Assembly: GCA_905215765.1 (NCBI GenBank) | Contig: CAJMRP010000001.1 | Location: 1-53,188, forward strand | Reading direction: 5' to 3' | DNA length: 53,188 bases | From: an uncultured bacterium | Lineage (GTDB): Bacteria > Actinomycetota > Coriobacteriia > Coriobacteriales > Coriobacteriaceae | Part shown: piece by piece, positions 15,742 to 22,502 of the stretch | How the letters are laid out: each line of letters starts with the position of its first letter | Numbering within the stretch: the stretch's first letter is position 1 | Position numbers and translations under genes: made by a program | The notes under the pieces: model-generated | What the model saw: only the letters and a program-made list of their open reading frames with translations | What the model was told of the DNA's origin: nothing | The model's database searches: none

Positions 15742-16584
15742 CTAACCCAGTAGCTGGTCAAGTGCCACCGCGATACCGTCTTCGTTGTTGTTGGCGGTCA
15801 CCATCTGGGCCACGGCCTTGACTTCATCGACAGCGTTACCCATGGCGACGCCGGTACCAGCCCACTCGATCATGGACTTGTCGTTCTGGCCGTCGCCAAA
15901 CGATACGACCTCGCTGGCATCGATGCCGAGCTTGGGCAGAGCACCCTCGAGCGCACGGGCTTTGTCGATACCGGGCGCCGTGTACTCAAAGTACCAGTCG
16001 GCCGTAAACATGCCCGAAAGCGTCTGCTTAAAGGGCGCGTACATTTCCTCGTAATGTGCCTGCAGGTAGGCCGGATCGCCCGCCGTCAGCAGCTTGTCCA
16101 CGGGATAAGTGTCCACGACCTCATGCAAGCTCTCGACCTCGCGGATCTTAAGGTCGCAGGCATCGCGCTCGTATTTGACAATGTTTTTCTGCGAGCCATC
16201 CGGCAGCGTAATCATGCAGTGGTACGAGTCCTCGACATGCAAGTCGCGACCGAGCGAGATCATGGGGATCACATCATAGTTTTGCAGATGATCAATCAGA
16301 CGGTGCAGCTCGTCAGCCGGCATGGCCTGGTCAAAAAGAACCTCATCGGTCTGAGCGTCGACCACATGCGCGCCATTGAAAGCGACTAGCAGACCGTCAT
16401 GGTTTTGGAGGTCGAGCTCCTGTGCCAGAGCATGTAGCCCCCATGCGGGACGGCCCGAAGCCAAGATGAGCTTAATACCCGATTCCTGCGCCGCGAGCAG
16501 CTTCTCGCGCGTACGCGGGCTGATCACCTTCTGATCGTTGGTAAGCGTACCGTCGATATCCATTGCGATGGCTTTAATTGCCAT
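15742..16584 (-). CDS. Cof-type HAD-IIB hydrolase
   Basis: DIDGTLT, ASGRP and FGDGQNDKSM motifs. Confidence 0.9.
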   Translation of the reverse strand: MAIKAIAMDIDGTLTNDQKVISPRTREKLLAAQESGIKLILASGRPAWGLHALAQELDLQNHDGLLVAFNGAHVVDAQTDEVLFDQAMPADELHRLIDHLQNYDVIPMISLGRDLHVEDSYHCMITLPDGSQKNIVKYERDACDLKIREVESLHEVVDTYPVDKLLTAGDPAYLQAHYEEMYAPFKQTLSGMFTADWYFEYTAPGIDKARALEGALPKLGIDASEVVSFGDGQNDKSMIEWAGTGVAMGNAVDEVKAVAQMVTANNNEDGIAVALDQLLG

Positions 16585-16990
16585 ATGTGCCTCCTTGCAT
16601 CGTTTTTATCGCGCACTATCTTATCCGAGCCGGGGCACGTTCGCACAGCGCGCGTATGACGGTTGCAAAACCACCCCATTTGAAACAAAGGCAAAAAAGT
16701 ACTTGCAAAGACGCGTTCCGACATATAAGTTGATAAAAGACCCCCGTTGCGGTTTTAAGTAGATCGAGCATATGAAGTTTGAGTTTTAGCGTGTAAGAAA
16801 AGGAAGATCGGCAAAGTACAACCCCAAACGCAATGACAACTTAATGAGGTAACTGCCACATGTGAGGCACCCAGGGCATTGCTGTCTCGATTTTGAGCAC
16901 GATGGCTTCCGCCTTGCATGGGCCGTTCCATCCCACCCCTGCAGCAACTGCCTCACGGGCTCATTGAAAACCGCATAGCACCCCAACGTC

Positions 16991-17026
16991 AGCACATCAC
17001 CCACGGCAAGCACATCACTCACGGCA
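16991..17026 (+). repeat. 18-bp tandem repeat (2 copies plus degenerate CA-rich tail)
   Basis: AGCACATCAC(C/T)CACGGCA twice, followed by ACATCAAC motifs up to the RBS at about 17065. Confidence 0.6.
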
Positions 17027-17073
17027 ACCAACACATCAACAAACAGCACGAACATCAACCGATTGGAGAAGCT

Positions 17074-17964
17074 ATGACAAACCACCGCGCTGAAGACGGC
17101 GATAAGAAAAGCATTCTGGATGCCCGAATTGAGCGAGCATATGCAAACGAATATGACACCGCCTTTGCCGCCGCGACCATCAAGAACTACGCGTCGCTAC
17201 CGCTCGCGACGATCTTGGCCGACCACCCTCAACTGCTGAAGCGCTGCACAAAGATCATGGGCGACCCCGACATTCGCAAGCTGACAGACCCCTATGCCCC
17301 AAAACGCGACAACGATTCGTGCGTTCTTACCGTAGGCTGCCTAGCCCATATGCTTACGGCGCTCGACACGAAACTCAAGCTCGAATGGGAACCCGACGAG
17401 CGTCATGAACTCGAAAGCAAGCGGAACACCCTGCGCACCGCACTGTTCCTTCCGTTGGACGGCCTCAAGCGCTGCAACGTCGAGCTCAATACACAGGCGC
17501 GGCAAAAGCCCGGGACCACGGGGCAGAAAACTCCAAGACCCCATGCGGCCATCGTCGACCGCAACCGATATAACCGCATGACCGCGCACTTTTCCGCCGA
17601 GGGAGCAGCCATAAGGACGCTGATCGACCTGCTGTGCCTCCTGAGCATCAACGAGCTATTTGAGGGCTATCTCGCCCTTGTTCCCGCGACGGCACCCAAG
17701 TCGGTAGCAAAGATCATTGAGACCTGCAGACGCCAGTTTGAGCGCCATCGCAATGGCAGCGAGATGAACGCCAGCATCGCGCAGTACTACGCGGCTCATT
17801 ACAAAAATGACGGATGTGCCCCTGTCGAGCATCAGCTGCGGCTCGCCTACACCACGCCCGTCGCAACGCTCCATCGCTTTGGAGCCCTTGGCGCTTGCGA
17901 GCCGCACGAACGGGCAGCCTGCCCCACAACCGAGCTCGATCTCAGGCTCGGACGAACCCTGTAG
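17074..17964 (+). CDS. Hypothetical protein (296 aa, probably helical, no family recognised)
   Basis: Long ORF with GGAG RBS before MTNHRAEDG; same strand and directly upstream of the ClpP-like gene. Confidence 0.7.
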   Translation: MTNHRAEDGDKKSILDARIERAYANEYDTAFAAATIKNYASLPLATILADHPQLLKRCTKIMGDPDIRKLTDPYAPKRDNDSCVLTVGCLAHMLTALDTKLKLEWEPDERHELESKRNTLRTALFLPLDGLKRCNVELNTQARQKPGTTGQKTPRPHAAIVDRNRYNRMTAHFSAEGAAIRTLIDLLCLLSINELFEGYLALVPATAPKSVAKIIETCRRQFERHRNGSEMNASIAQYYAAHYKNDGCAPVEHQLRLAYTTPVATLHRFGALGACEPHERAACPTTELDLRLGRTL

Positions 17965-18027
17965 CCCGCCAGCCCCTCCGCGGGCAACAATCCTATTCCA
18001 CAACACAACCAACAGAATGGAGTCCTC

Positions 18028-18645
18028 ATGGACACCAATCATTCCCCCATCATCAGCCCCCTCACCATGCGTGAATCCGCCCGAGGTATCACGCTCACCA
18101 GCATTTACGATGAGATGCTCGCCCGTCGCGAGCTCTCCGTCATGGGAAACATCGAAACCCCGATGGCCCACGACCTATGCCAGCAGATTCGTCTGCTCGA
18201 TGCCACCGACCCCAGCCGCCCCATCACCATATTTGTCGCCAGCGCCGGCGGAAGCGTGCGATCGGGTCTTGCGATCTATGACGCCATGCGCCTCGCATCG
18301 TGCCCCATCCGCACCGTCTGCCTGGAATTCGCCGCGTCCATGGGCGCCGTGATCTTTATGGGCGGCGACGATCGCCGTATGGCGCCCCATGCAGAGCTCA
18401 TGATTCACGACCCGCTGATTCCCCAGGGGGCAGGCGGCTCGGCACTTGCGCTGCAGGAAACCAGCCGGCGTCTCATGCAGACCCGCAAGACCCTCACGCA
18501 AATCCTCTCGGACCGCAGCGGCCTCACGCCCAAGCGCATCCAGTCCCTCACTGCAAAAGACACCTACCTTTCGGCCGAGCGCGCCGTCGAGCTCGGCTTT
18601 GCCCACGAAATCCTCTCGACCACCAAGGAGGTCGCCCATGTCTAA
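18028..18645 (+). CDS. ClpP-family serine protease (accessory paralog)
   Basis: SAGGSV, AASMGA (Ser), MIHDP (His), KDTYLSAERAVELGF (Asp). Confidence 0.9.
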   Translation: MDTNHSPIISPLTMRESARGITLTSIYDEMLARRELSVMGNIETPMAHDLCQQIRLLDATDPSRPITIFVASAGGSVRSGLAIYDAMRLASCPIRTVCLEFAASMGAVIFMGGDDRRMAPHAELMIHDPLIPQGAGGSALALQETSRRLMQTRKTLTQILSDRSGLTPKRIQSLTAKDTYLSAERAVELGFAHEILSTTKEVAHV

Positions 18646-19942
18646 CCTCGCCAGCCGCCTCGCCGCATCTGAGTCCGCATCGTCCACCATCCTCGCCAAG
18701 GATCGAACGCTTTCCTGCGACACCCGCCAAACGGGACTCAACAACAACGCACTTGTGATCGGCCCCTCGGGAGCCGGCAAGACCCGAAACGTCCTCAAGC
18801 CCAACCTGCTGCAAATGAACGCAAGCTACATCGTGCTCGACACCAAAGGCACGCTCTGTCGCGAAGTGGGACCCGTGCTGGCAGCCCACGGCTACCGCGT
18901 GCAATGTCTCAACTTCGCCGACCTCAACACCGTCCCGGCCCTTGCGCCCGGCATCGAGCGCTGCGGCTACAACCCCCTGAGGCACATTCGCCGCAAGGCG
19001 GACGGCAGGCCCAACCAGCAGGACATCCTCTCGGTGGCAAAGGCCATCTGCCCCATCGAGGACAACAACCAGCCTTTTTGGGATCATGCGGCGGCAAACC
19101 TGCTGTCGTGTCTTATCGCCTACGTCACCGAACAGCCACCCGCCGACGAGCAGACGATCAGCTCGGTCATCAAGCTGATCGAGCACCTGCAGGACGGTGC
19201 CACGGGTCGATTGTTTGACGACCTGATCACGACCGACCCCCAAAGCTATGCCCTCTCGCTATGGCGGCGCTACGCCATTACGCAAAATGCCGAGCGCATG
19301 CACGCGAGCATCGTCGGCATCCTTGCCGAAAAGGTCATGTGTCTGGGATTCGACGGTGCGGCACAGCTCTATCGTGAGTGTCATCAGGTGGACTTCGCTT
19401 CCATGGGACACACCCCCTGCGCCCTGTTTGTAACCGTGAGCGATATTGACCGCAATCTCGATCCGCTGACCGGCCTCTTTATTTCGCAGGCGTTTATGGG
19501 CCTCATTCGTGAGGCCGATAGGCAGCCCGACGGCAGCCTGCCCGTGCCCGTGCGCTTTATGCTCGATGACTTCGCAAATCTGCAGATCCCCCAGATCGAC
19601 AACGTGCTCTCGATTATCCGAAGCCGCAACATCTGGGCAACGCTGCTGCTGCAGTCGACCAACCAGCTCGATGCGCTCTATGGCGAGGCACGCGCACGCT
19701 CCATCATGGGCAACTGCGACACGCATCTGGTGCTGGCGTTCCAGGATCCCGAGAGTGTCCGGGTGTTTTCCGACCGCGCCGACGCGCTGCCCAGCACGCT
19801 CATGGCGACGCCGATCGATCGCTCGTGGCTCTTTGTGCGCGGTCGCACTCCCGAACAGGTCGAGCGCTTTAGGCTCGAAGACCATCCGCTCTACGGGGAG
19901 TTGCCCGAGGCGCAGCGAGACCATGCGGAGGCCGAGATCTAG
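18638..19942 (+). CDS. VirD4/TraG-like coupling-protein-family ATPase without N-terminal TM anchor
   Basis: NNALVIGPSGAGKT (Walker A), VLDTKG, YNPL, PFWD, FMLDDFAN, RSRNI, QSTNQL and IMGNCD motifs; AAGGAGG RBS; 8-nt overlap with the ClpP gene. Confidence 0.85.
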   Translation: MSNLASRLAASESASSTILAKDRTLSCDTRQTGLNNNALVIGPSGAGKTRNVLKPNLLQMNASYIVLDTKGTLCREVGPVLAAHGYRVQCLNFADLNTVPALAPGIERCGYNPLRHIRRKADGRPNQQDILSVAKAICPIEDNNQPFWDHAAANLLSCLIAYVTEQPPADEQTISSVIKLIEHLQDGATGRLFDDLITTDPQSYALSLWRRYAITQNAERMHASIVGILAEKVMCLGFDGAAQLYRECHQVDFASMGHTPCALFVTVSDIDRNLDPLTGLFISQAFMGLIREADRQPDGSLPVPVRFMLDDFANLQIPQIDNVLSIIRSRNIWATLLLQSTNQLDALYGEARARSIMGNCDTHLVLAFQDPESVRVFSDRADALPSTLMATPIDRSWLFVRGRTPEQVERFRLEDHPLYGELPEAQRDHAEAEI

Positions 19943-20017
19943 GCGCAGGGTTCTCGCGGCGCGCGGCGCCCCAGCGATGTTCCACAAAGGCCGTGCGCCC
20001 CGGGACTACGGCAAAGC

Positions 20018-20051
20018 AAAGGGGCCCGCATCCGATAGGATACGGGCCCCT
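20018..20051 (-). terminator. Terminator between pgi and the VirD4-like gene
   Basis: GGGGCCCGCATCC-GATA-GGATACGGGCCCC with short A-tract. Confidence 0.65.
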
Positions 20052-20083
20052 GACTATAAGGCGCGATGCGTTAACAGCAGCGA

Positions 20084-21778
20084 CTACTTGCGATGCGCGC
20101 GGTAGAACTCGATGAGCGCCTGGGTCGAAGCGTCCTGCTCGGCCTTGGCGGCGTCATCGTGGAAGGCCGGGGTAATCTGCTTGGCAAGCTGCTTGCCCAG
20201 CTCGACGCCCCACTGGTCGTAGGAGTCGATGCCCCAGACCGTGCCCTCGACAAACGTGATGTGCTCGTACAGGGCGATGAGCTCGCCGAGTGCGAACGGG
20301 GTCAGCGTGTCGCCGAAGATCGAGGTCGTCGGGCGATTGCCCTCAAAGCAACGGGCCGGGACGATCTGCTCGGGCGTGCCCTCGGCACGAACCTCATCGG
20401 CCGTCTTACCAAAGGCGAGCGCCTTGGTCTGGGCCAGGAAGTTGCCCAGGAACAGCTCGTGGACATCCTGGCCGCCGTCGGTCGCAGGGTTGGCGGTATT
20501 GGCGAAGGCGATGAAGTCGGCCGGAACCACCACAGTGCCCTGGTGCAGCAGCTGATAGAAGGCATGCTGGCCGTTGGTGCCGGGCTCGCCCCAGAAGATC
20601 TCACCGGTGTCGGAGGTCACGGCGCTGCCGTCCCAGCGGACATGCTTGCCGTTGGACTCCATGGTGAGCTGCTGCAGGTAGGCCGGGAAGCGGTGCAGGT
20701 ACTGGCAGTACGGCAGCACGGCGTGGCTCTTGGAACCGAAGAAGTTGACGTACCAGACATTGAGCAGGCCCATCAGCGCGACGGCGTTGTTCTCGAGCGG
20801 GGTGTTGCAGAAGTACTCGTCGATGGCGTGGAAGCCCTCGAGGAACTGCTGGAAGCGCTCGGGGCCGAGCACGACGATCAGCGACAGGCCCACGGCGGAG
20901 TCGACGGAGTAGCGGCCACCAACCCAGTTCCAGAAACCGAAGGCGTTGGCAGGGTCGATGCCGAAGGCCTCGACCTTCTCGAGTGCGGTGGAGACGGCGA
21001 CGAAGTGCTTTGCCACGGCCTCGGCGTTCTGCTCATCGGAGCCGTCGATGGCGCCCTGAGCCTTGAGCTGCTCGAGCATCCAGGTCTTGACCTCGCGAGC
21101 GTTGGTGAGGGTCTCGAGCGTGGTGAAGGTCTTGGAGACGATGATCACGAGCGTAGTCTCGGGATCCAGGCCCTTGAGCTTCTCGGCCTGGTCGTTGGGG
21201 TCGATGTTGGAGATGTAGCGGCAGTCGATACCGGCGTCGGCATAGGGACGCAGGGCCTCGTAGGCCATGACCGGGCCCAGATCGGAGCCACCGATGCCGA
21301 TGGACACCAGGTGCTCGATCTTCTTGCCGGTAACGCCCTTCCACTCACCGGAGCGCACGCGCTCGGCGAAGGCATACATGCGATCGAGGACCTCGTGCAC
21401 GTCGGCGACGACGTCCTGGCCGTCGACGATGAGCTGGCCCTTCTCGGTTACCGGGCGGCGAAGCGCGGTGTGCAGGACGGCGCGGTCCTCGGTGGTGTTA
21501 ATGTGCTCGCCGGAGAACATGGCGTCGCGGCGCTCCTCGAGCTTCACCTCGCGGGCAAGATCGCACAGCAGCTTGACGGTCTCATCGGTCACCAGGTTCT
21601 TCGAAAGATCGAAGTGCAGGTCACCGGCGTCAAAGCTCAGCTTGTTCACGCGGTCGGCGTCAGCAGCGAACCAGGCCTTGAGGTCGATACCTTCGGCCTC
21701 GAGCTTCTCCTGATGAGCCTCGAGCGCCTTCCAAGCGGCAGTCGACGTAGCATCGATAGGTGCGGCAACAGTTGCCAT
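20084..21778 (-). CDS. pgi: Glucose-6-phosphate isomerase
   Basis: [31 protein letters not shown] and DQWGVELGK motifs. Confidence 0.97.
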
Positions 21779-21977: not shown

Positions 21978-22502
21978 TTAGGCCGCAGCGCAGACGCTAC
22001 CGAGCAACTCACGCAGAGGAGACCCGATGCCCTCCAGCAGTTCGGGCGCGATAATGGCAAAAACGGGAACCTCACCGGTGCCCACGACAGCAGGCGCCTT
22101 GCCCTCCGAGAGAATGCATCCATAAGGGACAAAACCGTCTTCGCCGGCATCGAGCGCCGCCATGCGACGCGCGAGCTCGCGCGCAAAGCCGGCAGTATCG
22201 GCATCGCCAATCGCCAGGACAAAGTCCACGCCTTCGTCGGTCGCCAGGGCCACGGCTTCGTCGATCAGTTCGTCTCCCCCGTCGCCCCCAACCGAGCCGC
22301 AGCGGAAAAGTACGCGCTCGAGCAGGGCTCGATCAAGCGAGCCAAGTGCCGCCGAGACAAGCTCATCGCGCGTATGCTTGTCACCGCCCAACACGACCAG
22401 CGCCTTGGTGCCACCGTAGTGAGCGACCAATCGTCCGCACCAGCGAGCCACGTCTCCATCCACAACAAGGCGCGTCGGCATACCAAACCCGTAATTGACC
22501 AT
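21978..22502 (-). CDS. Truncated or degenerate iron-containing alcohol dehydrogenase-like protein (N-terminal part only)
   Basis: NYGFGMPTRLV...KALVV...VDFVLAIG resembles the Fe-ADH N-terminus, but GGGS is replaced by GDAD and there is no metal-binding C-domain. Confidence 0.5.
   Translation of the reverse strand: MVNYGFGMPTRLVVDGDVARWCGRLVAHYGGTKALVVLGGDKHTRDELVSAALGSLDRALLERVLFRCGSVGGDGGDELIDEAVALATDEGVDFVLAIGDADTAGFARELARRMAALDAGEDGFVPYGCILSEGKAPAVVGTGEVPVFAIIAPELLEGIGSPLRELLGSVCAAA

Follow-up and report, generated by a model that had tools for sequence, protein, structure and literature searches.

ClpP works, to our knowledge, only with AAA+ unfoldases, as in ClpXP, ClpAP and ClpCP, and we know of type IV coupling proteins (VirD4, TraG, TrwB, Cagbeta and the CD1115 family) only as membrane-bound gatekeepers of type IV secretion. 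Ring ATPases are also joined to enzymatic effectors in defense systems: DUF4297-HerA pairs a HerA-type ring ATPase with an effector, IetAS combines an ATPase with a protease, and BREX BrxL is Lon-like. Here we describe a three-gene cassette that places a ClpP beside a coupling-protein-like ATPase. The cassette lies on a 53,188-nucleotide contig (CAJMRP010000001.1) of a metagenome-assembled Collinsella genome of 2.08 Mb in 222 contigs, estimated as 91% complete; the whole 53-kb contig was analyzed and is referred to as the window. On its forward strand the cassette encodes a helical partner protein (17074–17964), a ClpP (18028–18645) and the ATPase (18638–19942), and its neighbors, both on the reverse strand, are a Cof-type HAD gene on one side and pgi on the other. 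A first-pass annotation, made from the window alone, had placed three co-oriented genes between these two neighbors, and this layout was borne out when the open reading frames were re-read and the flanks were identified by Pfam (Hydrolase_3 and PGI). We put at roughly 45% the probability that the cassette is a horizontally spread module in which an anchor-less coupling-type ATPase and its own ClpP form a self-contained proteolytic unit with a variable partner, acting in conflict with phages or plasmids. A conserved module of this kind would suggest that ClpP can be powered or targeted in a way not known so far, and would give a coupling-type motor a new, conjugation-independent job. The annotation knew of no characterized system with this architecture, and full-text literature searches, at the level of their listings, likewise returned no published description of a ClpP-coupling-ATPase module.

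A ClpP paralog paired with a coupling-protein-like ATPase

Judged by its sequence, the 205-aa product of the second gene is a true member of the ClpP family, but a paralog, since the canonical clpP-clpX pair of this genome lies on a separate contig. It scored 153 bits against Pfam PF00574 (E = 1e-44; 273 bits for the genome's canonical ClpP) and aligned with solved ClpPs over residues 11–199, 6cfd being its best solved relative (E = 8e-33). Its Ser104-His127-Asp178 triad is intact, with Ser104 and His127 invariant and Asp178 found in 14 of 15 aligned cassette ClpPs, and the N-terminal axial loop is retained. The retention of the catalytic motifs and the lack of a clpX gene beside the cassette are thus as the first-pass annotation had them. 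The protein falls under every curated NCBIfam ClpP cut-off (122.9 versus 308.6 bits for TIGR00493; 150.5 versus 249 for PRK00277, the best ClpP model). In all cassette ClpPs, Thr stands at the first Tyr of the canonical ...YLYINSPGG... motif, which we take to be a pocket residue of ClpP. The gene evolves under a dN/dS of 0–0.08. Matches to plasmid ClpPs were canonical clpP genes at no more than 36% identity and were uninformative.

The 434-aa product of the third gene matches Pfam PF02534 (T4SS-DNA_transf), PF12696 (TraG-D_C) and PF10412 (TrwB_AAD_bind), and reaches 251.0 bits against NCBIfam NF045973 (VirD4-like, CD1115 family; cut-off 250) over profile positions 3–372 of 442. Its Walker A motif, GPSGAGKT, occupies residues 42–49, the protein beginning ~40 residues earlier, and its Walker B motif is LDDF at 309–312, with D310 and D311 invariant in 34 orthologs. 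A DE Walker B is found in a second module of the same genome, described below, and in two relatives of 595–602 aa. The highest 19-residue Kyte-Doolittle mean is 1.30, compared with at least 2.0, at residues 14–63, in five T4SS-type (type IV secretion system) relatives of 589–620 aa; these five carry ~130 extra N-terminal residues with hydrophobic segments that are absent from the cassette ATPase. The first-pass description of a protein with GPSGAGKT and LDDF motifs and no transmembrane segment is therefore accurate. An AF2 model (pLDDT 91.7, pTM 0.90) places an all-alpha domain at residues ~146–246, and its best Foldseek matches were Cagbeta (8dol; E = 7e-16, TM 0.73) and TrwB (TM 0.67–0.70), followed by DotL, VirB4 and HerA. 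HerA chains (E ~1e-8, TM 0.46–0.54) scored well under coupling proteins, and SIR2-HerA structures were among the weaker matches (E ~5e-8, TM 0.46–0.48); HerA shares the superfamily of the ATPase without being the family nearest to it. The dN/dS of the ATPase is 0.18–0.28. In a phage collection, 40 records match it at no more than 33% identity, most of those listed being unannotated.

The likeness to type IV coupling proteins thus lies in the fold of the nucleotide-binding and all-alpha domains and in the Pfam and NF045973 matches. The cassette ATPase differs from them in the missing ~130 N-terminal residues and anchor, in the DD instead of DE Walker B of its clade, and in its setting, which holds no T4SS, relaxase or VirB4 gene and always includes ClpP; plasmid coupling proteins are only ~30% identical to it.

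The two genes are linked by their translation signals. An AAGGAGG ribosome-binding site (18625–18631) lies within the end of clpP, and the stop and start regions overlap by 8 nt, ATGTCTAA, at 18638–18645, an arrangement (18625–18645, forward strand) that had already been noted in the first-pass annotation and that implies translational coupling. A GGAG stands 5 nt upstream of the ClpP start. With its triad, its axial loop and a ring ATPase that it adjoins and with which it is translationally coupled, the cassette ClpP resembles the ClpP subunit of ClpXP, ClpAP and ClpCP. Three features set it apart from those machines. The ATPase is an FtsK/HerA-superfamily coupling protein and not an AAA+ protein; no IGF-type docking loop was found in it; and the ClpP itself is under the curated cut-offs, has Thr at the pocket-motif Tyr and coexists with a separate canonical clpP-clpX pair. 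An LGF at about residue 237 was considered as an IGF-like docking loop and rejected, being replaced by LSF, LAT, LTF, FVF or LSH in orthologs.

The pairing recurs well beyond the window. Recurrence of the adjacency in other genomes had been set beforehand as the point on which the first-pass interpretation would turn, and ClpP adjoins the ATPase in 23 of 23 diverged loci (21 from Coriobacteriia, one on an IMG/VR contig and one in a Clostridia genome), spanning three families of Coriobacteriia and two phyla. It does so as well in all 100 near-identical Collinsella loci, which comprise 80 picked for greatest similarity and, from the cassette-bearing genomes of an even sample, 20 picked for least similarity. 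In the 21 diverged Coriobacteriia loci the two genes are always on the same strand, separated by -41 to +115 nt in 20 loci and by 1018 nt in one, and both gene orders occur: ATPase then ClpP in one genus, ClpP then ATPase in the others. Counted among them are 14 loci outside the window whose ATPase orthologs have 40–63% identity, and which belong to further Collinsella species, to different genera of its family and to two additional families of Coriobacteriia; all 14 have an adjacent ClpP on the same strand. Over the 21 loci, pairwise identities of ClpP and ATPase correlate at r = 0.96, a value that is descriptive only as the loci are related, and the adjacency is kept down to 27–31% identity. 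In Clostridia (399 genomes sampled), the only full-length anchor-less match at E = 1e-82 or better has a ClpP 4 nt upstream and no conjugation genes nearby; only four candidates per genome were scored and only matches passing that threshold listed, so that this single ClpP-linked match is a floor and not a frequency. Among 2.9 million viral contigs, the IMG/VR contig with the pair is the only one that carries a relative.

The genome of the window contains a second module, 27–30% identical to the cassette (contig C20; L094:3088–13693). It consists of a 305-aa protein of no known family, a 517-aa VirD4-like protein, a 200-aa ClpP and proteins of 297 and 169 aa that are likewise uncharacterized, followed by a 779-aa HSDR_N/N6_Mtase protein (type I/IIG-like); an AbiEii/AbiEi pair lies 2.7 kb away. 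The core is conserved in five other Collinsella genomes, four of which keep the order [305 aa]-ATPase-ClpP-[297 aa]; the 297-aa gene is missing from the fifth. In four of these five, the 305-aa gene is the most diverged of the module: its product is 66–68% identical (93% in the fifth), compared with 91–97% for the ATPase and 97.5–98.5% for ClpP. In total, the genome has exactly two VirD4-like and two non-canonical ClpP genes, arranged as two adjacent pairs, which indicates a pairing beyond chance.

Ten other VirD4-like loci are without ClpP, and five of them (L095–L097, L216, and L093 by its flanking gene clusters) lie among conjugation genes, including three plasmid coupling proteins within PcfB-VirD4-VirB6-PrgI-VirB4 clusters. 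Conversely, the gene maps of the 21 ClpP-linked loci show no relaxase, VirB4, VirB6 or other T4SS gene. No tyrosine recombinase was found on the window contig, and the whole 91%-complete assembly has no AAA_10 (VirB4-like) match above cut-off, no Relaxase and no MobA_MobL, VirB6 and trigger factor not having been searched for. The first-pass annotation had denied that this is a conjugation module, on the grounds that relaxase, VirB4 and integrase genes are missing and that the anchor is lost. The former ground stands and so does its conclusion, relatives beside conjugation genes being those that lack ClpP. The latter stands in part: the anchor is indeed absent, but a 479-aa VirD4-like protein of Faecalibacterium (L216, G374:C24), also without a hydrophobic segment, sits in a cluster with a MobA/MobL relaxase, a DUF3991-Toprim-AAA_25 primase and TrbL/VirB6. 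Anchor-less coupling proteins therefore occur inside conjugation systems too, and the absence of an anchor alone is not decisive. Because the linkage of ClpP and ATPase is strict, independent of gene order and co-diverging, and because the two genes are translationally coupled with their catalytic motifs intact, we conclude that they are a functional unit and not a relic. In two further, distant VirD4-like loci of Coriobacteriaceae (L109 and L110), a search of 4 kb showed no ClpP, but both lie near contig ends.

Two database gene calls of 637 aa, P0004 and P0006 (one cluster, 47 members), arise from a clpP frameshift that runs into the open frame 5' of the ATPase start. We considered them as natural ClpP-VirD4 fusions and rejected this, as they are ClpP reads shifting frame in mid-gene and not domain fusions; they reflect either errors of sequencing or natural knock-outs of ClpP.

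A fast-evolving helical partner family

The 296-aa product of the first gene has no match among Pfam, NCBIfam, PADLOC or PHROG families. The first-pass annotation had regarded it as an orphan, a view that we revise: it is a member of a small family that travels with the ClpP-ATPase pair. Homologs were found at 97%, 73–89% and 42–45% identity, and a profile ties the protein to ~300-aa genes that lie, collinearly, upstream of the pair in other genera. The family numbers 47 clusters among 1.84 billion representatives. Eight alignment columns do not vary across 40 sequences; they include L288, R291 and L292, which the AF2 model (all-helical; pLDDT 73.6, pTM 0.72) places in a C-terminal helix after a disordered linker. 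With a dN/dS of ~0.5, the first gene belongs to a fast-evolving, all-helical family with an invariant C-terminal LxxRL. A known fold was sought for the partner and none was accepted: the best Foldseek match in the PDB had E = 0.3, and the best VIA-align score against 48,161 chains was Z = 5.8, below the meaningful level for helical proteins. In three subfamilies the partners end in -LAAA, -IAA or -NAA, tails that we presume to resemble ssrA-type degradation tags. In other orthologous modules, unrelated small genes replace the partner, or extra genes are present (a Mokosh-like SF1 helicase, a DarT-like domain protein, an IS3-like transposase).

A coupling-type ATPase encoded with a helical partner of no known family recalls the Cagbeta-CagZ and DotL adaptor complexes, in which small proteins regulate or load a coupling ATPase, as does the conserved C-terminal motif of the partner. 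CagZ is helical and binds the all-alpha domain, and coupling proteins read C-terminal signals of their substrates. In the solved Cagbeta-CagZ entry, according to its title, the small partner regulates the coupling ATPase. The cassette partner differs from these adaptors in having no sequence or fold similarity to any solved chain, and its binding to the ATPase is conjectural. A joint complex prediction of ClpP, ATPase and partner, in which the partner was scored, gave 0.01 (mark, 0.32) and speaks neither for nor against contact.

The partner might also start at an upstream ATG at 16918, giving 348 aa. Diverged homologs are mostly of 296–300 aa, with some gene calls of 352 aa, and the alignment begins at the 17074 start. 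An 18-nt tandem repeat, AGCACATCACCCACGGCA, is present in 2.1 copies at 16991–17027, ~50 nt 5' of the partner start and inside the 348-aa alternative frame; it may be an operator or merely the source of the longer gene calls.

Insertion at the pgi 3' end and recent spread

The cassette was detected in 72 of 121 sampled Collinsella genomes, and it occupies the same site in the 100 Collinsella loci. Relative to the window, its dS is 0.02–0.03, compared with 0.13–0.16 for the flanking HAD and pgi genes, 0.30–0.34 for a Y-family polymerase gene and 0.52 for cof (0.13–0.53 over all flanking genes), that is, its synonymous divergence is 5–20 times under that of the flanks. The low-divergence block runs from ~16700 to 19900. 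In at least 36 of the 100 loci, the pgi 3' end recurs as an imperfect direct repeat of ~95 nt that brackets a 3.4-kb block (16612–20019 in the window). The right copy (20019–20113 in the window) holds a hairpin at 20020–20051 with a 14-bp stem, the common terminator of the convergent cassette and pgi, followed by the last pgi codons; the left copy of hairpin and pgi 3' end, 72–76% identical, lies ~465–560 nt 5' of the partner gene and was also seen in RNA-library contigs. In five cassette-free Collinsella genomes, pgi adjoins HAD or GntR genes. On the strength of the low dS relative to the flanks, the bracketing repeat and these cassette-free neighborhoods, the cassette looks like an insertion at the pgi 3' end that has recently spread across lineages. 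The first-pass picture of a quiet resident between housekeeping genes must accordingly give way. No integrase, relaxase or replication gene was found in or beside the 3.4-kb block in the 100 loci and the window.

The window itself is without the left repeat copy. Many Collinsella genomes have, between cof and the cassette, a 224-aa DeoC-like open reading frame and a displaced pseudo-3'-end of pgi with a copy of the terminator (L010:4988–5972 and equivalents). The window (16585–16612) has neither, a deletion of ~1.1 kb having removed the left repeat together with the DeoC-like gene. The non-coding leader or promoter region upstream of the partner (16612–17073, forward strand) is part of the inserted block: the low-divergence segment begins at ~16700, and in other genomes the sequence from 16612 onward comes after the left copy of the direct repeat. 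Three studies have RNA-library contigs that cover the cassette, and in one RNA run it appears as short, low-depth pieces next to a deeper pgi contig; such contigs could include DNA, and they cannot show transcription, operon structure or level.

Some alleles depart from this uniform picture. At L121 (G136:C46), partner and ClpP genes have ~82% DNA identity and the ATPase gene 91%, with one in-frame TAG, and this divergent allele may be pseudogenized or an older variant. The ClpP of L120 is a mosaic (dS 0.23). A contig labeled Sodaliphilus sp. (L052, CAVKNR010000010.1) carries the cassette and Collinsella-like flanks at 97–100% protein identity, and is probably a mis-binned Collinsella contig rather than a transfer to Bacteroidota.

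Possible roles of the module

Relatives of the cassette are found beside genes of defense type. In three loci (L088:6791–9721, L089 and L091) the ATPase gene is directly followed by a gene for a 976–1015-aa SF1 helicase with a weak DUF2726 match (E = 0.0025), which matches the PADLOC Mokosh models MkoC and MkoA (E = 2e-43). Other neighbors of relatives include a DarT-like domain protein, type I/IIG methylase and AbiE. An IS3-like transposase adjoins one ortholog, and the IMG/VR relative, whose contig is predicted to be viral or mobile, has a DUF3991-Toprim primase gene and a PD-(D/E)XK transposase-like gene as neighbors. The cassette shares with SIR2-HerA, DUF4297-HerA, IetAS and BREX BrxL the logic of a ring ATPase, an enzymatic effector and a variable component, and with HerA-type and ATPase-protease defense systems a patchy distribution and the company, among its relatives, of other defense genes. 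It differs in that the effector would be ClpP, which is in no PADLOC model, and in that its ATPase is a coupling protein and not HerA.

We favor a course of events in which a coupling-protein-type ring ATPase would have lost its membrane anchor and all link to conjugation, and would now work with its own ClpP paralog as a self-contained, ATP-dependent proteolytic unit. In the simplest reading, a hexamer of the coupling type would dock onto the ClpP barrel or feed it. The fast-evolving helical protein would be the specificity or regulatory subunit, that is, an adaptor, a regulator or a substrate, and would probably engage the machine through its conserved C-terminal LxxRL helix. The biological role would most likely be conflict with invading DNA, in the form of phage or plasmid defense. 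We infer the roles of the partner and of the whole from context: conflict with phages or plasmids is favored because of the patchy presence of the cassette, its recent spread, its fast-evolving partner and the defense-type neighbors of its relatives. Defense of this kind, if that is the role, would bring a protease-based system to Collinsella, a genus very common in the human gut, in which the module is an insertion of recent spread. Gut bacteria of two phyla carry the module. Being small (3.4 kb, three genes), with clear catalytic residues and natural cassette-free relatives, it is directly testable.

Several observations weigh against this reading. In the window-type clade the Walker B motif is DD and not DE, which could mean slow hydrolysis or none. 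No conserved IGF- or LGF-like loop was found in the ATPase orthologs; and the ClpP-ATPase fusions that seem to occur in the protein database come down to ClpP reads with a frameshift, none being a true fusion. The RNA-library contigs over the cassette could derive from DNA and hence are no demonstration of transcription. The cassette is present in most genomes of the C. aerofaciens group and stable at one site, and defense genes usually turn over faster than that. Its immediate neighbors in the window are housekeeping genes and not a defense island. Lastly, PADLOC-DB v2 held no match for ClpP or the partner and only a weak one, mad8, for the ATPase (E = 2.7e-7); an excerpt of PMC13662399 calls MAD7-MAD8 an ATPase-nuclease module.

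The role could instead be physiological: the pair would turn over the partner or a target that the partner delivers, as a control on some state of the cell such as stress response, competence or the state of the envelope. Presence in 72 of the 121 sampled Collinsella genomes at one locus beside sugar-metabolism genes, the strong purifying selection on ClpP and ATPase, and the presumably ssrA-like -LAAA, -IAA and -NAA tails of the three partner subfamilies are all consistent with such a regulated-proteolysis module. It is harder to square with a patchy distribution that leaves empty sites in congeners, with recent cross-lineage spread and a flanking direct repeat, with the rapid evolution of the partner, and with relatives that lie beside defense and mobile-element genes; we regard it as doubtful. 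The signs of mobility could instead mean that the cassette is selfish cargo, namely an addiction (toxin-antitoxin-like) module, an anti-defense device or a tool of competition between elements, persisting by spreading and not by protecting its host. The bracketing of the insertion by a repeat of the target gene's 3' end, a cassette dS far under that of the flanks, the primase and transposase-like gene beside the IMG/VR relative and the IS3-like transposase at one ortholog would fit. Since the 3.4-kb block has no integrase, relaxase or replication gene in or beside it in the 100 loci and the window, and a relative occurs on only one of 2.9 million viral contigs, we hold this to be unlikely, somewhat more so than a physiological role. 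A shade less likely again is a variant of the favored mechanism in which ClpP is fed by the anchor-less coupling protein itself, as the translocase that selects the substrate. The machine would act as a cytoplasmic decoy coupling protein, capturing proteins with conjugation-type or phage C-terminal signals (for example incoming relaxases, primases or phage proteins) directly or via the partner, and destruction of these proteins would block the establishment of invading DNA. Were this true, the ATPase would be the first non-AAA+ partner of ClpP.

Two further readings would make the cassette a remnant, and we give very little credence to either. A decayed integrative conjugative element could have left behind its coupling protein and a passenger ClpP, and the cassette is indeed an insertion whose ATPase reaches the NF045973 cut-off, though by one bit (251 versus 250). 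Against such decay, in 100 loci the genes have stayed intact and purifying selection acts on them, and their adjacency is kept to 27–31% identity across two phyla, whichever gene comes first. Neither VirB4 nor VirB6 nor a relaxase was ever seen with the pairs, and the coupling proteins in conjugation clusters are without ClpP. Phage morphogenesis, for its part, would supply a ClpP-type prohead protease and an FtsK/HerA-type packaging ATPase. The cassette ClpP matches PHROG head-maturation protease families (phrog_94, E = 2e-36) and one relative is on an IMG/VR contig, but against the head-maturation model NF045542 it reaches only 95.3 bits (cut-off 120), less than against cellular ClpP models. 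The ATPase matches no PHROG family and folds like a coupling protein, HerA and VirB4 being lesser matches, and no phage family was found among the scanned neighbors of the relatives and the window.

An Rfam scan of 16000–20500 gave no match, and no consensus sigma-70 promoter was found on the forward strand. Beyond pgi, a 191-aa open reading frame at 21978–22553 matches an iron-containing alcohol dehydrogenase profile of 168 positions no further than position 105 and is thus a truncated gene. It has no match in five loci that span its site, which indicates that the far side of pgi is variable too.

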